From the NCBI RefSeq assembly GCF_003334765.1, contig NZ_QOWT01000047.1: a DNA stretch of 21,426 nt; one strand, given 5' to 3'. The first letter of the stretch is position 1. The number at the start of each line of letters is the position of its first letter. Shown piece after piece: positions 12,058 through 17,481 of this stretch. The position numbers were made by a program, and so were the translations under genes. The stretch is from Escherichia coli (GTDB taxonomy: Bacteria; Pseudomonadota; Gammaproteobacteria; Enterobacterales; Enterobacteriaceae). The notes beneath the pieces are model-generated. The model worked only from the letters and a program-made list of their open reading frames with translations, was not told the DNA's origin and ran no database searches.

Positions 12058-12363
12058 TTATTTAAAAGAGCTGAAAAATACAGGATTTAAATGGTGTTGG
12101 TATTTAAACTCAGTAGGTATAGTAACACTCGCATCAATCAGTTCTGTGATAGCCTGATAAAATTGAGTGGGTGTAATATGTATCCCTTCTTGCTGTGCTA
12201 TGGGCGTAACACGATGAAAAATTAGGTAAACAATGCTCTTATCTGGCTTATACGACGCGATTAATGTAAGCAACCAGAATACATTGTGAATAGTAGTGTT
12301 AAGATTATGACTTTCAACTGATGATTGATTATTTTGAAAGTAAGTGGAGAGTCTTTTTTGCAT
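12058..12363 (-). CDS. Hypothetical protein (101 aa)
   Basis: ORF downstream of and co-directional with 12428-12991; weak RBS; no motif recognised. Confidence 0.35.
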   Translation of the reverse strand: MQKRLSTYFQNNQSSVESHNLNTTIHNVFWLLTLIASYKPDKSIVYLIFHRVTPIAQQEGIHITPTQFYQAITELIDASVTIPTEFKYQHHLNPVFFSSFK

Positions 12364-12427
12364 AAAGGTATCGTTTTTTTGTTAATGTTATCACTCGCGT
12401 GGAGAAAATTACCACGCTGTAATGTTT

Positions 12428-12991
12428 TTAAAATGGAATGCCGTCTGCAGGATTTCGTCTTCTGGAGTTTTTAACTGATTTTGTTTTACTCCAGGCACGA
12501 TAAAAATTAAACGAATTGGCAAAATCTTCTGTCTCCAGTCTGGATTTTCTGAATTTATCCATCAGATCTTCATTGAAACGACGAGGAATTCCCTTAACGC
12601 ACAAGTTTGAATTCAGATATACCTGATTATCTATGGTGTCACGAATAAGTATTTTTTTTCCAAATAACTCTTTGAATGCACGTGAAACATTTGATTTATT
12701 CAGCCCAAGCTCTTTGGCAGTACGTGACTGTGAAAAATCAGGAATAATATTACCGTAATCAATGGCTGAGAAGAGATAAATCACAATTCTAAATGCTGTA
12801 GGCGTCAAATCCATTCTGGCGAGTGTCGCCATATTACCTTTAAATACCATTGAGAAATCGTCCTTGAAGGACGTCTTTTTATAGCTGGTTGCTTTAATTT
12901 TTATTTCTTCTAGATCTTCGGGCATAACCTCTAATGCTTCTGCAATAATGGATTTTTGTTCTTTAGTTAATACAACACTTGTGATTGACAT
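12428..12991 (-). CDS. Winged helix-turn-helix DNA-binding protein (187 aa), RepL-like / plasmid replication-associated candidate
   Basis: AGGAG RBS 5 nt upstream of ATG. Central segment …TPTAFRIVIYLFSAIDYGNIIPDFSQSRTAKELGLNKSNVSRAFKELFGKKILIR… has typical wHTH spacing. A divergent AT-rich region and tandem direct repeats lie 460-600 bp upstream. Family is inferred from motif pattern, not from a search. Confidence 0.6.
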   Translation of the reverse strand: MSITSVVLTKEQKSIIAEALEVMPEDLEEIKIKATSYKKTSFKDDFSMVFKGNMATLARMDLTPTAFRIVIYLFSAIDYGNIIPDFSQSRTAKELGLNKSNVSRAFKELFGKKILIRDTIDNQVYLNSNLCVKGIPRRFNEDLMDKFRKSRLETEDFANSFNFYRAWSKTKSVKNSRRRNPADGIPF

Positions 12992-13452
12992 AATGGCTCC
13001 TTTTTTATTGTTGTGATTACAGATATGGCATATTTAATTTATTTGTCAATGGTTTTGATGATATTATTTTAATTATATCTTATTTGAATTTTTTATCCGT
13101 TCTTTGGTGGTGGTAATAGGTTGTAAAATTTGAAACGAGGGGTGCTAAATTTAACCATCACCTGTTATGTGATTGATAATTTTTGGTGCTGAAATTAACA
13201 ACGGCATATTTTGTATAATCATATGATTTTATTAGATAATTTTTGATTTTGATCTGCAAGATAAAAGAGTGATAAAGAAATAAGAAACCACAGTTTTGCA
13301 TTTGATCGATACTCAAGGCCTTGGTGTACCTGATGAAAACATTTTTATTATTGCTTTTCTTAAATAATATCATTTGTAAATTGAAGCCTGCGCAACTGTG
13401 TGTTACGCCCCATTGGGCTTCAGAACATCACTATAGTGTTTTCAGTCAGTAT

Positions 13453-13600
13453 AAATACGCTTCGCGCACGAGTTCACAGTATTTAGGTTTACTGTCATTA
13501 AAAATACGCTTCGTGCAGAAGTTCAGAAAAATGGGGTTAGCTGTCAGCACAAATACGCTTCGCGCAAAAAAAAATCAGGAGGCTAAGTTGATCGAGAAAG
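13453..13600. repeat. Three direct repeats at exactly 49-bp spacing sharing a 16-bp core AAATACGCTTCG(C/T)GCA (iteron-like)
   Basis: Cores at 13453-13468, 13502-13517 and 13551-13566. Units 1 and 2 also share AGTTCA and CTGTCA blocks further along the 49-bp unit; unit 3 keeps only the core. Non-coding context. Confidence 0.7.
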
Positions 13601-14030
13601 CGAACACAGATACATGATTTACCCGTTTGCTGACTACGGCTCACGCCGGGACCCTTCGGAAAAACCCTTTCTGCTTCAGCGAGTGAGTGCTGCGGGCACT
13701 CAGAGGCGCTGCCAGGGAGACAAAATTAAGTTTTTCAACTGTTTGGTAAAAATAATTAACATTTATAGGTAGTCGGGGCGTAAGCCAGTGCGTAGCACGC
13801 TCTCAAAAAATATTCCTGTGGGTTTCTTATCTGCAATAGGGAAATAACTCAGATAATTGATATATGAAAAAACAATACAATCGGGAAGACACAACTTTAG
13901 CACAGTAAAAGCTATTTGTATTTATGAGGAATAAAATATATATGAATAATAAAATATTTTTATTTTGCTATTGATTTTAATTTTTAAGATGATAGTACTT
14001 AATTATAAAAACAAAATAATGGAGGAAATT

Positions 14031-14456
14031 ATGAGTGCTATTAATGTGTTATCTCAGGAGGAAAAATTTATACATGTTGTTGATAAATTTATAACCCATA
14101 ATCACAACGGCGTTAATAACAATGTCTTTTATAAAAAACTTTATGTTCTCTTCGCCGGATATCATCTGAAGTATTTTTATTCACGGGCGCAATATCGCAA
14201 TTCGTGTTATCACGTTGATAATATCATGCAGATGTTTATGGGTGTCGTTTCTACCCTGAAGACCCCTCTGCTCAGGCAACTCGCAAACAGTGACACATTG
14301 CTGCATTGCCTGAATTCGCTCGTGAATTATATTTCAGGCAATCTGGATGAAGCAGAGCACATTTATGCTGATTTACTGGCACAGTATGAAAAGAAACGCA
14401 TTGCACGTTCTCTGGCTTATACACCACCAGGATCCGTGGTCAGGAAAAGACTGTGA
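14031..14456 (+). CDS. Hypothetical protein (141 aa from ATG 14031; ORF track begins at 13965)
   Basis: GGAGG RBS 8 nt before ATG 14031 (MSAINVLSQ…). C-terminal tail …EKKRIARSLAYTPPGSVVRKRL resembles the tail of the ankyrin protein at 17683-18636. Confidence 0.5.
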   Translation: MSAINVLSQEEKFIHVVDKFITHNHNGVNNNVFYKKLYVLFAGYHLKYFYSRAQYRNSCYHVDNIMQMFMGVVSTLKTPLLRQLANSDTLLHCLNSLVNYISGNLDEAEHIYADLLAQYEKKRIARSLAYTPPGSVVRKRL

Positions 14457-14539
14457 GACATCGGAAATGCGCCGGACAAGGCAGAGTATGGCAGAGTGAC
14501 ATAAAAGCAGTCGTTTCCCGCAAGATATTACCGGGCATT

Positions 14540-14597: not shown

Positions 14598-14918
14598 TTA
14601 CTTATCAACGACCTGCCAGCCATCATCTGTTTTGACCAGCTTGACAGCCGCTGTGCGTTTTTCGTTATCGACAACAGCTGTTACATTGCATTTATAGCTT
14701 TTATCCGATAGTTTTTCGCAGTCGTGTTTTTTGACTGATTTTAACTTCCGCAGCATGTCAGGCGTGATATCGTTTCTCGCTATGGATTTAACGATGGCAT
14801 TCGTCTGCTCCACGACCTTATTCATCGCAGTGTAAATATCCTGCTCAGACGGTTCACTGGTGCAGCCGGTCAGCAAAAAAATGGACGCAATGAGTGTGGT
14901 AAATGCATATGTTTTCAT
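14598..14918 (-). CDS. Small lipoprotein (106 aa)
   Basis: Signal peptide with lipobox LLTG|C (MKTYAFTTLIASIFLLTGC). Mature part ends …AAVKLVKTDDGWQVVDK. Confidence 0.7.
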   Translation of the reverse strand: MKTYAFTTLIASIFLLTGCTSEPSEQDIYTAMNKVVEQTNAIVKSIARNDITPDMLRKLKSVKKHDCEKLSDKSYKCNVTAVVDNEKRTAAVKLVKTDDGWQVVDK

Positions 14919-14944
14919 AAAATAATCCCAGACGGTAGAGTACG

Positions 14945-15343
14945 TTATTGAAAAAGGCCGGTTTTCATCTTGCTGTTGTTTTCAGAGAACGTCCACTTGC
15001 TGACGGTTTCGCCTTTAAATTCGATTTCCAGCGTTTTGGCCTGCGTCTGTGAACCCCCGGTCAGCAGTCCAATCACGGGAATGAATGTGGTGGCATCAAA
15101 CTGATTGTTGTCCATCGAATAAGTCCATTGTTCATTGCCACTATCAAGTGTAGTTTTGGTTTCGGGCTGACCGAATGCGGTAATGATTTCTGATTTCGTT
15201 GTTTTATTTTTGATGATTTTCGACTGCAGACTTTGTGATGTTTCTTTTTTTAGATGCTGGTTGCCTGATGTTGAACAGCCAGAAATAAGTAAAGAAGAAA
15301 TAAAAAACACAGAAATCATGAATCTGTTCATAAGTTTTCTCAT
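14945..15343 (-). CDS. Lipoprotein (132 aa) with BamE/SmpA-OmlA-like motif
   Basis: Lipobox LISG|C. Segment …EIITAFGQPETKTTLDSGNEQWTYSMD… resembles the BamE-type LGxP…W.Y motif. Possible alternative start at M5 (15331). Confidence 0.65.
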   Translation of the reverse strand: MRKLMNRFMISVFFISSLLISGCSTSGNQHLKKETSQSLQSKIIKNKTTKSEIITAFGQPETKTTLDSGNEQWTYSMDNNQFDATTFIPVIGLLTGGSQTQAKTLEIEFKGETVSKWTFSENNSKMKTGLFQ

Positions 15344-15380
15344 ATTAATTTTTTATGTTTGCGGTGGTGTGAAATTAATA

Positions 15381-15656
15381 TCATCTTATAAAAACAACTC
15401 TGTCTGCATATTTCTTTTTAATAATGCAGATAAGAATAATGACGCTGGCAAAAAACGTAATGACTGAGGCAGGAGTGCTGCCGGTCAATGAAAACACTAA
15501 CCAGGCGAGAGCTAATGCCACGAATTGAAACAGGAATGCCACACTGAGTGGACTTTCACCATAGGCCACTTTTGCATGGCAACCTTTGCAAACCCGCACA
15601 CCGTGTGGGCTTTGTGTAAAGCAGAAAGGGCAGCTAATCGTTTTATTATCCATCAT
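15381..15656 (-). CDS. Zinc-ribbon membrane protein (91 aa)
   Basis: N-terminal CPFC…(8)…CKGC four-Cys zinc-ribbon motif followed by two hydrophobic helices (FLFQFVALALAWLVFSL; VITFFASVIILICII). Confidence 0.6.
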   Translation of the reverse strand: MMDNKTISCPFCFTQSPHGVRVCKGCHAKVAYGESPLSVAFLFQFVALALAWLVFSLTGSTPASVITFFASVIILICIIKKKYADRVVFIR

Positions 15657-15841: not shown

Positions 15842-17077
15842 TTATGGTGCAGGATGGTTGTTGTTTTTAAATGATTGTTCTTTATTGGTATTTGTTGTCA
15901 TGGGATGACAGGGTGTCAGAATATGTAGGTGGAGGATTTGGTGGAAAGGATGTGCAGTGGCATGTAACAGAGACATGCCTCTGCGCCTGAGAAGTGCCAC
16001 AATATGGACGAGCAATACAAGCCATGAATACAGACGACGCTGGCGGGGTATCTGACGAGCTGTATTGTGCAGATTGCTCCTGAGCTGGATGATACCCACT
16101 GTCTCCTGTTGTCTTTCCAGACGAATTTTTTCTTCAAGCTGATGGATTTTCTCCAGAATCGTTTCCCGGTTTGCAGCCTGCTCTTCAGACTCGCATGATG
16201 GCACTGGCACTGGCACTGGCACTGGCACTGGCACTGGCACTGGCGCGGTTGTAGGTTCTATTGGCCTCTGGGCTTCTTTCAGTAAACTCAGATGCTCAGG
16301 CGTAAAATCAATCAGTGCTTGCAGGGAAGACCAGCCATATTTTTTACCCAACTGAGATGCTTTAAAGGCAATACCCTGGTATTGAAATGAAAATCCACTC
16401 ATTTTACCCGTAGTGGCGATATTGGGTTTGCAGGTCACTCCTTCCTGTTCCAGTAAGCGAACAAAGGTTAGTAAATCGGGATGGTGTGTTAATGCATTGT
16501 CGAGCAGGGCCTGCAACAGTGACTTAGGGCAGGGAGCTGCTGTGCGTTCTGCCATCATCAGTTCATTACGGGAAGGCTTCCTTTTATCCTGGCGGCTACT
16601 GCCGGTTACACCCGTAGTTTCGGTGAGGCCGTGTACTCTCTCCAGCTCACTGATAATCCGTGTGCCGATAAGATTTTCATTTTTCCCCAGGTACAGTTTT
16701 CCACCGACCATGTTAATACGACTTGCAATGATATGAATATGCTGCCCATCCGGATCATCGTGCATGATATAGCAGCGAAGATGGGTGTCAGTGAAGCCCA
16801 TTCGGGCCATATAATCGTCAGCGAATGCTGCCCACTGTCTGTTTGACAGTTTCTCACCCTTTGGCAGGCGAAGTGAATTATGCCAGACAGGTTTGGCGAC
16901 ATCGGGACGCAGCAGTCGGGTGCCTTCAAATTCACTTATAAGCTCAGCAGCAGTGCTACCCGTCATGTTGCCACCGATGACATAAGGCGTGATTTTGTGG
17001 TGAGAACCTGACTTCAGGCTATAAATAACCACACCTGTGAATTGTTTACCCCTTTTTATTTTCTGCATGCCTTTCAT
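15842..17077 (-). CDS. Plasmid mobilization relaxase (MobA/VirD2-like relaxase domain), 411 aa
   Basis: N-terminal candidate catalytic Tyr (…VVIYSLK…) and histidine-triad motif HDDPDGQHIHIIASRIN (HxDxDxxHxHxxxxxxN). Start ATG overlaps the mobC stop (ATGA). Central (PV)7 linker. C-terminal about 80 aa is unusual in composition and the gene may be 3'-degenerate. Confidence 0.8.
   Translation of the reverse strand: MKGMQKIKRGKQFTGVVIYSLKSGSHHKITPYVIGGNMTGSTAAELISEFEGTRLLRPDVAKPVWHNSLRLPKGEKLSNRQWAAFADDYMARMGFTDTHLRCYIMHDDPDGQHIHIIASRINMVGGKLYLGKNENLIGTRIISELERVHGLTETTGVTGSSRQDKRKPSRNELMMAERTAAPCPKSLLQALLDNALTHHPDLLTFVRLLEQEGVTCKPNIATTGKMSGFSFQYQGIAFKASQLGKKYGWSSLQALIDFTPEHLSLLKEAQRPIEPTTAPVPVPVPVPVPVPVPSCESEEQAANRETILEKIHQLEEKIRLERQQETVGIIQLRSNLHNTARQIPRQRRLYSWLVLLVHIVALLRRRGMSLLHATAHPFHQILHLHILTPCHPMTTNTNKEQSFKNNNHPAP
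16201..16242. repeat. Perfect hexanucleotide simple-sequence repeat (GCACTG)x7, in-frame in the relaxase gene (encodes PVPVPVPVPVPVPV)
   Basis: Seven perfect tandem copies read directly from the sequence. Confidence 0.9.
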
Positions 17078-17481
17078 GGGTCTGACTCCAGAAATGTTGA
17101 GGGAATAAGGTGATCCCTGAGAGTTTTGATTTGTCTGCGCAGGGCGAAGAGTTCTGTACGGGTCAGTTCGCTGTCAGGGCTTTTGCTGTCGAGATGACTC
17201 AACAGGTAGTTTAAATCCTGTGAAAGGCTGCCAAGTTTTATCCATGCTTCACGATTGATTTCTGGCAGAACCGGCGGGAGTTTATTCAGGGAAGCCATCC
17301 TGAGCCATTCTCCTTTTTTATACTGACCTCTTTTACTGTCGAGAATAATTAATTCTTCTTCATTTAATCTGACACTGATGCAGTGATGTCGTATTTCATT
17401 CTCAGGAAATTTGTCAGTATGGAATTTACCGCGTTTTGATACTCTGGTTATATCATCATCATTACTCATGTCACTGTTCAT
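17074..17481 (-). CDS. MobC-family mobilization/relaxosome accessory protein (135 aa)
   Basis: Segment …WIKLGSLSQDLNYLLSHLDSK… fits the MobC (L.kiGnNlNQiar) motif. Sits immediately upstream of and translationally coupled to the relaxase. AGGAT RBS. Confidence 0.7.
   Translation of the reverse strand: MNSDMSNDDDITRVSKRGKFHTDKFPENEIRHHCISVRLNEEELIILDSKRGQYKKGEWLRMASLNKLPPVLPEINREAWIKLGSLSQDLNYLLSHLDSKSPDSELTRTELFALRRQIKTLRDHLIPSTFLESDP

Follow-up and report, generated by a model that had tools for sequence, protein, structure and literature searches.

The conjugative type IV secretion systems (T4SSs) of F, pKM101 and RP4 translocate proteins, for which a positively charged C-terminus generally suffices, and the signal of RfaH is wholly C-terminal and ends ...KHSVKNTEFRKL (PMC11288057). 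VirB/D4 systems have known arginine-rich signals at the C-terminus, and Bartonella has a helical domain with a basic tail (PMC10025392); S4TE lists ankyrin as an effector feature. T4SS C-terminal signals, those of the conjugation machines especially, have so far been described by charge and hydrophobicity only, with no compact consensus. A further C-terminal label, the ClpX tag of MuA (...CILEQNRRKKAI-COOH), is transplantable and consists of a basic cluster and a terminal aliphatic residue (PMC12723719; PMC8138137). We describe here a short tag at the ends of unrelated proteins encoded in a 21,426 bp stretch of Escherichia coli DNA (contig NZ_QOWT01000047.1, assembly GCF_003334765.1), referred to below as the window, which is part of an island adjoining the tmRNA gene ssrA.

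As read from the alignments, the tag has two parts, E-[KR]-x-x-[ILV] at about position −22 and [KR][KR]R[LIM]-COOH, joined by a variable linker. It is present on unrelated carriers in two very different bacterial settings, and it is under selection at the level of the peptide. A C-terminal recognition tag is a known concept, and the sequence, architecture and distribution of this one are new; no description of the tag or of the island family was found in the literature.

A tail common to two unrelated island proteins

The two tagged proteins of the window are p141, a 141-amino-acid (aa) protein, and an ankyrin protein of 317 aa, with the following features.

14031–14456, plus strand: p141, all-helical in its predicted structure, part of the island-family backbone, with its gene convergent with the mobilization (mob) operon (open reading frame [ORF] and RefSeq WP_001274227.1)
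14388–14396, plus strand: p141 E120-K121-K122, the upstream tag element, with E at −22, within the last predicted helix (residues 105–127)
14412–14453, plus strand: predicted disordered tail of p141, residues 128–141, with the terminal R138-K139-R140-L141-COOH at 14442–14453
17683–18636, minus strand: ankyrin protein, with ankyrin (ANK) repeats at residues 1–165, an unassigned alpha/beta domain at 168–284, and a terminal helix and tail
17743–17751, minus strand: ankyrin-protein E296-K297-K298, the upstream tag element, with E at −22, within the terminal helix (residues 285–304; 17725–17784)
17686–17724, minus strand: predicted disordered tail of the ankyrin protein, residues 305–317, with the terminal R314-K315-R316-L317-COOH at 17686–17697

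By translation p141 ends ...YEKKRIARSLAYTPPGSVVRKRL and the ankyrin protein ends ...REKKDLLKEMKPEIPRSSVRKRL. The original prediction held that these tails are alike, and the translations bear this out, with 10 of the last 23 residues identical in register and a terminal VRKRL common to both. When the C-termini of all window ORFs with 80 aa or more were compared in 1,128 pairs, the runner-up had an anchored identity of 6/23, and the remaining pairs agreed in at most two terminal residues. The likeness extends over ~34–35 residues (tail alignment A3) and includes the last helix of each protein, giving a shared pattern of [DE]x[DE]x[IV][YF]..[YL][IL]Axx-E-K-K-x-[LI]xxx[ML] followed by the variable linker and the basic terminus. 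When the p141-family profile (A1) was compared with the ankyrin-family profile (A2) using hhalign, only the last 27 columns aligned (115–141 against 290–316). Simple paralogy is therefore ruled out, as the profile-profile match is confined to the tail columns and the bodies of the proteins are unrelated.

The likeness had also been taken to lie in the protein and not to reflect a recent duplication, and the nucleotide sequences agree. The last 25 codons of the two genes are identical at 30/75 nucleotides, and eight of the ten identical tail residues are encoded by differing codons. Codon analysis rules out a conserved DNA site, an inverted repeat, and recent gene conversion or duplication at the two gene ends, which are convergent. 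A recent recombinational swap of the tail, which was among the explanations first suggested, is not supported either, as the DNA is diverged and the tails of co-resident genes are no closer to each other than are those of orthologues. An ancient transfer of the tail module between proteins may have occurred.

The terminal motif is retained in homologues of both proteins, with [KR][KR]R[LIM]-COOH kept across p141 relatives (60 clusters) and ankyrin relatives (78 clusters). Ankyrin homologues at only 29–34% identity retain the tail (e.g. 412-aa proteins ending ...CKRRL or ...SKKRL), and one ankyrin subfamily has cleanly lost it; p141 homologues at 42–46% identity end ...RVRAVRL, ...VNRVRL or ...VRVRNVRL. 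In the p141 family alignment (A1) E120 is invariant and K121 and K122 are mostly conserved. Entropy is close to zero at the last four positions in every family, and the linker between the elements is variable. Four codons (AGA, AGG, CGA and CGT) are in use for the invariant Arg at −2 and seven for the terminal Leu, Ile or Met, and each of the three stop codons is found. Near-zero terminal entropy, a variable linker and this codon diversity indicate that selection acts on the peptide, i.e. purifying selection on the tag, as judged from these alignments, operates at the peptide level.

In an AlphaFold2 model of the ankyrin protein, with a predicted local distance difference test (pLDDT) score of 90, the ANK repeats (1–165), the alpha/beta domain (168–284) and the terminal helix (285–304) are followed by a disordered tail (305–317), in which the score falls to 52–69 and which is not confidently docked. 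The p141 model is of low confidence (pLDDT 51) and is all-helical, with a last helix at residues 105–127 and a disordered tail. The tails of both proteins are thus predicted to be disordered and exposed. The linker is hydrophilic, with a mean Kyte-Doolittle value of −0.5 to −1.6 over the last 25 residues.

The rare codons AGA or AGG encode the −2 Arg in 35 of 38 distinct tail DNAs, which are not independent sequences, compared with 39% of the Arg codons among island genes. The window contributes 14442–14456 and 17683–17697 to this observation, and the further tails are from loci L004–L034. Rare Arg codons near stop codons have been reported to provoke SsrA tagging, and the island with these codons in its tagged genes is itself seated at ssrA.

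Other carriers of the tag

Every ORF terminus in the loci fetched was compared with [KR][KR][KR][LIMV] at the C-terminal end, and the search for the motif on otherwise unrelated proteins of the same element family was positive, in a 122-aa family (p122), the only additional carrier family, and in several ankyrin lineages. Using hhalign, p122 aligns to the ankyrin family only over its last 32 residues (91–122 against 287–316) and does not align to the p141 family at all. Homologues of p122 retain ...[KR]KR[LI]-COOH down to 52% identity with a wholly changed linker, and a fourth ankyrin lineage ends ...EQKEISRHLKP...KNGGRL. These loci contain 503 distinct ORFs with a length of 100 aa or more; the terminal motif [KR][KR]R[LIM] is present at the ends of 33, all from the p141, ankyrin or p122 families; it ends none of the other 470, the expected frequency being 2.8e-4.

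ORF-level synteny reveals a single backbone in ~25 loci of at least ten genera. Its order is DUF6387, the 187-aa helix-turn-helix (HTH) protein, p141 (tagged), the lipoproteins, p91, the relaxase, the MobC-like protein, ankyrin (tagged), p146, a second ankyrin (tagged), a cargo slot of varying content, and p122 (tagged), which adjoins the chromosome; individual elements do not all have the full set. The genes of p141 and the relaxase are neighbors in at least 20 loci, which represent ten genera or more. By this gene order, all enterobacterial carriers belong to one relaxase-bearing, defense-carrying island family in the Enterobacterales.

A second setting was reached through a weak ankyrin match (P0132, 30% identity) to a metagenomic contig (L042) of 25.9 kb and 25% GC. 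This contig contains no rRNA or tRNA, and is bacterial, encoding a prolyl-tRNA synthetase (ProRS) that scores above the TIGR00409 cut-off but has no editing domain, as well as a MoxR ATPase, downstream of which lies a transglutaminase gene. Thirteen of its 24 genes end in [KR]R[LIMV]-COOH, usually after E-K-[EK]-x-[IL], where the relaxed terminal motif is expected at 1.1e-3 per protein and occurs at 0.0008 per position inside L042 proteins. By all-against-all BLASTP the tagged proteins, which comprise four ankyrin and four two-transmembrane proteins together with five singletons, fall into seven or more unrelated groups. The two-transmembrane proteins are small (168–180 aa; 12269–14489 and 20235–20768), have two central transmembrane helices and an N-terminal NIHILNKLFKEYKK-like motif, and are all tagged. 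The tag is thus not limited to soluble proteins.

A metagenome scan with the L042 ankyrins yielded four further loci. On the short contigs L043 and L044, from close relatives, both complete ORFs of the former and one of the latter end ...IKRL after an EIERD or EFEKN helix, and in a region (L045) of the 285-kb contig Ga0308166_1000051, with 31% GC, seven of the 29 ORFs (173–586 aa) end in [KR]KR[LIM]; an unrelated control contig has none in 14. Across both settings, E-[KRQH]-x-x-hydrophobic lies 22–25 residues from the C-terminus in 18 of 28 tails and is absent or offset in the rest. The low GC content, the reduced ProRS and the many ORFans and ankyrins suggest that the source of these contigs is symbiont-like.

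A 34-column tail profile run against 1.84 billion representative proteins recovered only the p141 and ankyrin families at E≤0.001, a search of limited sensitivity that missed p122 (although included in the profile) and the L042 proteins. Tail peptides had no real match among 50,697 phage records, the tail profile found none among PDB sequences, and viral contigs contained no relatives.

Gene content of the island and its relatives

Of 5,426 complete genomes, 57 contain at least 80% of an 11.8-kb query covering the island. In strain MRE162 the order of the island genes is ypjA/EhaD, followed by those for a DUF6387 protein, an HTH protein resembling AlpA and the winged-helix protein of 187 aa. 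Next come p141, the two lipoproteins, the membrane protein of 91 aa, the relaxase and the MobC-like protein, and then the ankyrin protein, p146 (146 aa) and remnants of DUF4928. After these lie NACHT and RelA/SpoT-domain proteins, a pair of ParB-family proteins, a serine recombinase and, next to ssrA, an integrase. The genes of the window neighboring the tagged pair are as follows.

14598–15656, minus strand: distal mob-operon genes of the syntenic backbone, encoding lipoproteins (14598–14918 and 14945–15343) and a 91-aa zinc-ribbon/membrane protein (15381–15656)
15842–17481, minus strand: mobilization genes between the two tagged genes, encoding a MOBP-type relaxase of 411 aa (15842–17077) and a MobC-like protein of 135 aa (17074–17481)
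18651–19091, minus strand: p146, a backbone protein of 146 aa that always adjoins the ankyrin gene(s) and is untagged

The relaxase was identified by NCBIfam matches and RefSeq annotation, and its nearest plasmid relatives, with 43% identity across the catalytic domain, are on small IncQ2-type mobilizable plasmids that have MobC. The island encodes no transfer apparatus, and with a relaxase and a MobC-like protein but no T4SS it would depend on a helper; by its genes it is an integrative mobilizable element. It is not a PIME (int, alpA, repA, trbJ/trbL), as the window is without trbJ/L, nor an EARL/ICEKp258.2 element (MOBQ relaxase, TraD, pilus genes), as the window relaxase is of MOBP type and there are no TraD or pilus genes. 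No families in NCBIfam, PADLOC, PHROGs or Pfam match p141, p122, p146 or the C-terminal domain of the ankyrin protein.

The cargo slot between the mob/ankyrin genes and p122 is a defense hotspot, located here at 20776–21426 of the window and continuing in L001 25186–28196, where NACHT and RelA/SpoT-domain proteins are encoded. Sister elements contain a Gabija-like OLD/UvrD pair, a Type ISP restriction enzyme, a Type I restriction-modification system with Kiwa, or a YobI ATPase at this position; loci L002, L004, L029 and L031–L034 show the slot beyond the window. In Klebsiella a conserved ~6.5-kb block (L002 3990–10400, and L020–L025) has the Gabija-like pair bracketed by a divergent 412-aa ankyrin gene and p122 downstream, both tagged. 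The right-hand flanks of these blocks differ and there is no relaxase, so that the block has the look of an island-family remnant or of a cargo end that is portable.

The 187-aa winged-helix protein (12428–12991, minus strand) has weak HTH_36, Phage_rep_O and Rep3_N matches and ends ...NPADGIPF, an ...[DS][GD]IPF end that homologues from E. coli, Citrobacter and Superficieibacter have kept and that resembles the DDDIPF C-terminal tip of SSB, the binding protein for single-stranded DNA. Beside its gene, at 13433–13566, are three iteron-like direct repeats at 49-bp spacing with the core AAATACGCTTCGCGCA. Gene and repeats together have the appearance of a replication module, one that might connect with SSB-partner proteins. 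The 200-bp gap from the end of the ankyrin gene to the start of the MobC-like gene contains a 13-nucleotide near-perfect inverted repeat (GGTATACCATTTG/CAAATAGTATACC, 17581–17607), which is a candidate operator or oriT; a search for oriT by the IncP nic consensus was uninformative. The start of the relaxase gene overlaps the MobC-like gene by 4 nucleotides (17074–17077), suggesting translational coupling, and a (Pro-Val)8 run (TTAPVPVPVPVPVPVPVPSCE, ~16181–16228, minus strand) separates the catalytic and C-terminal parts of the relaxase. The long autotransporter gene at 4550–9259 (plus strand) is YpjA/EhaD, outside the tagged set, with 49% GC compared with 38% for the mobilizable part.

Possible readers of the tag and comparison with known systems

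A short, terminal, two-part tag on unrelated proteins in two distant settings fits best with an address label read by a common receptor. Secretion or targeting, one of the roles suggested at the outset, is favored by the tag's presence on many unrelated proteins of the distant low-GC bacterium, and the mass tagging of unrelated ORFans and ankyrins has the look of an effector repertoire. The leading candidate is an export signal with a T4SS as the machine, to which we give a probability of about 0.4. A T4SS coupling protein leads since this is the only kind of machine plausibly common to a mobilizable island, through a helper plasmid, and an effector-rich bacterium. We infer the export role, the T4SS as machine and the functions of the cargo proteins. 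The exposed E-[KR]-x-x-hydrophobic element that closes the last helix, ~22 residues from the terminus, and the strictly terminal basic-basic-Arg-Leu/Ile/Met with its free carboxylate, beyond a variable flexible linker, would be recognized on unrelated proteins by one receptor, most likely the T4SS substrate receptor (the coupling protein). Tagged p141 and ankyrin proteins of the island, and p122 of the sister elements, would be passed to the conjugation channel of a helper plasmid and delivered to the recipient together with the island DNA, where they could aid establishment or blunt defenses; secreted effectors would be what the tag marks in the low-GC bacterium. The full proposal, namely a sequence-defined portable secretion tag (E-[KR]-x-x-hydrophobic, ~17 residues, [KR]R[LIM]-COOH) that is read by a conserved receptor of type IV or still unknown machinery, and that takes the island's ankyrin binders and small acidic or helical proteins into recipients via a helper channel and marks the effectors of the low-GC bacterium, is offered tentatively and is doubtful as a whole.

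All 26 tails compared have the three or more basic residues and the hydrophilic character in the last 25 residues that S4TE looks for. Several observations weigh against export by a T4SS. Net charge reaches +2 or more in 15/26 tails, with p141 at +5 and the ankyrin protein at +4 and many tails of the low-GC lineage below; the EEXXE block is found in none of the 26 (last 30 residues), and a hydrophobic residue at −3/−4 in two. By the alignments the tag is far more sequence-specific than known T4SS signals, being strictly terminal with an invariant −2 Arg, and the F system tolerated five extra C-terminal residues (PMC11288057). No T4SS gene was seen on the low-GC contigs L042 or L045, the motif ends none of the annotated proteins of F or R751, and the IncQ2-like relatives of the relaxase have no such tail. 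Searches with the tail peptides found the families absent from 72,556 plasmids, the lone match being a 3.6-kb linear assembly fragment, and tagged genes with intact tags survive in relaxase-less remnants (the Klebsiella block and integrase-plus-two-ankyrin islets).

That survival would be explained if the tail were a degron or tether for a universal cytosolic AAA+ machine, most probably ClpX, as no host is without it; the tail would then act like the MuA C-motif-2, by which the proteins would be short-lived or delivered to ClpX. Use of ClpX is frequent among mobile elements, the MuA tag is likewise a basic cluster with a terminal aliphatic residue, and strict anchoring at a free C-terminus in a disordered tail is typical of degrons. 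This explanation is nevertheless unlikely. It leaves unexplained the tags on 13 of 24 unrelated neighbors in L042, membrane proteins included, and the conserved second element 22 residues upstream, and the sequence differs from RRKKAI, with an invariant Arg at −2 where MuA has Ala. The XB tail of SspB, which is also reminiscent of the tag, ends in Lys and not Leu. An equally improbable alternative makes the tail a ligand of the co-occurring ankyrin proteins, whose acidic groove would bind the basic peptide in trans, or their own tail in cis as autoinhibition, with the ankyrin protein as adaptor or chaperone. One ankyrin family does occur along with tagged proteins in most settings (the window, L006, L008–L014, L029, the Klebsiella block, L042 and L045), the ANK domain has a net charge of −8 and the tail of +4, and ankyrin repeats bound to extended autoinhibitory peptides are among the top structural matches. 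However, tagged p141 and/or p122 occur with no ankyrin gene in the element in L004, L005, L015 and L031–L033, tails and ankyrin lineages show no co-variation, and the pLDDT of 52–69 in the model gives no confident docking of the tail.

The tag might instead act after delivery into a eukaryote, in which case it would be a signal of nuclear localization signal (NLS)-like or sorting type, read by the host, and present in enterobacterial islands only as a legacy of a host-associated lineage. Many tails do resemble monopartite NLS cores (PKRKRM, PKKKRI, PVRKRL), ankyrin repeats are eukaryote-like, and the low-GC contigs have the symbiont-like features noted above. We regard this as very unlikely, as the conserved ...RVRAVRL, ...KNGGRL and ...LIKRL do not look like NLSs, a terminal position is not required of an NLS, and p141 and p122 are backbone genes under clear purifying selection in free-living Enterobacterales. 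Most improbable of all is that the tails have no common function and reflect chance likeness or a fragment spread passively by recombination within the element. Single family-pair hhalign P-values are indeed modest (0.013 and 0.034), and the whole-module profile adds no family at E≤0.001 among the 1.84 billion proteins, but the alignments are co-terminal in both partners, the motif ends 33/33 family members against 0/470 other ORFs, the peptide is conserved with synonymous turnover, and the tag recurs at the same spacing on many unrelated proteins of a second lineage.

A short terminal two-part tag in two very different bacteria provides a concrete sequence for reporter-fusion and point-mutant tests. 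If conjugative export is its role, conjugative protein transfer would have its first compact consensus signal, by which the 'vanguard' proteins of mobilizable islands could be listed directly; mobilizable defense islands would then send proteins as well as DNA into recipients, and effectors could be found by a simple rule in uncultured, ankyrin-rich bacteria. Should it prove to be a degron or an ankyrin ligand instead, it would still be a new short linear motif across a mobile-element family, one that shuttles Gabija, restriction-modification, Kiwa, NACHT and other defense systems among the Enterobacterales.

Among described signals, conserved C-terminal modules on unrelated effectors are also found as the Xanthomonas XVIPCD and the Bartonella BID domain with its basic tail, and the latter shares the bipartite logic of a helical part plus a basic tail. 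BID, a folded domain of ~100 aa, and XVIPCD, at ~120 aa, are both far larger than the ~35-aa tag with its single helix end. Identity with either domain is ruled out, as the shared region is ~35 residues and neither p141 nor residues 160–317 of the ankyrin protein have a Pfam match. The Dot/Icm signal of Legionella and Coxiella is similarly C-terminal and hydrophilic, with an acidic element before the terminus and many ankyrin effectors, but it has an E-block and a hydrophobic residue at −3/−4 where the tag has a hydrophobic residue at −1 and a basic end; with the 0/26 and 2/26 given above, a Dot/Icm-type signal is ruled out. A classical monopartite NLS or AT-hook is ruled out too, as the conserved ends ...RVRAVRL, ...VNRVRL, ...KNGGRL and ...LIKRL are without the K-[KR]-x-[KR] or GRP core, and so is a sortase or exosortase sorting signal, as a hydrophilic variable linker stands in place of the hydrophobic transmembrane stretch.

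Further parallels are with MuA and with the charge-based T4SS signals. The ClpX C-motif-2 of MuA (...RRKKAI-COOH) shares with the tag the extreme C-terminal position, the basic cluster preceding an aliphatic end and the use by a mobile element, and differs in having Ala at −2 where the tag has its invariant Arg; the tag in turn has the extra upstream element and a mass occurrence on unrelated L042 neighbors. The T4SS signals (the Agrobacterium VirB/D4 Arg motif, and the F/pKM101/RP4 'conjutome', e.g. RfaH, whose sufficient signal ends ...FRKL-COOH) resemble it in lying within the last ~25–50 residues, in being unstructured, basic and hydrophilic, and in occurring on otherwise unrelated proteins in the context of mobile elements. 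These signals are, however, defined by charge and tolerate C-terminal extension, whereas the tag has an invariant −2 Arg, must end in an aliphatic residue and has another fixed element at −22, with a net charge that is not always positive.

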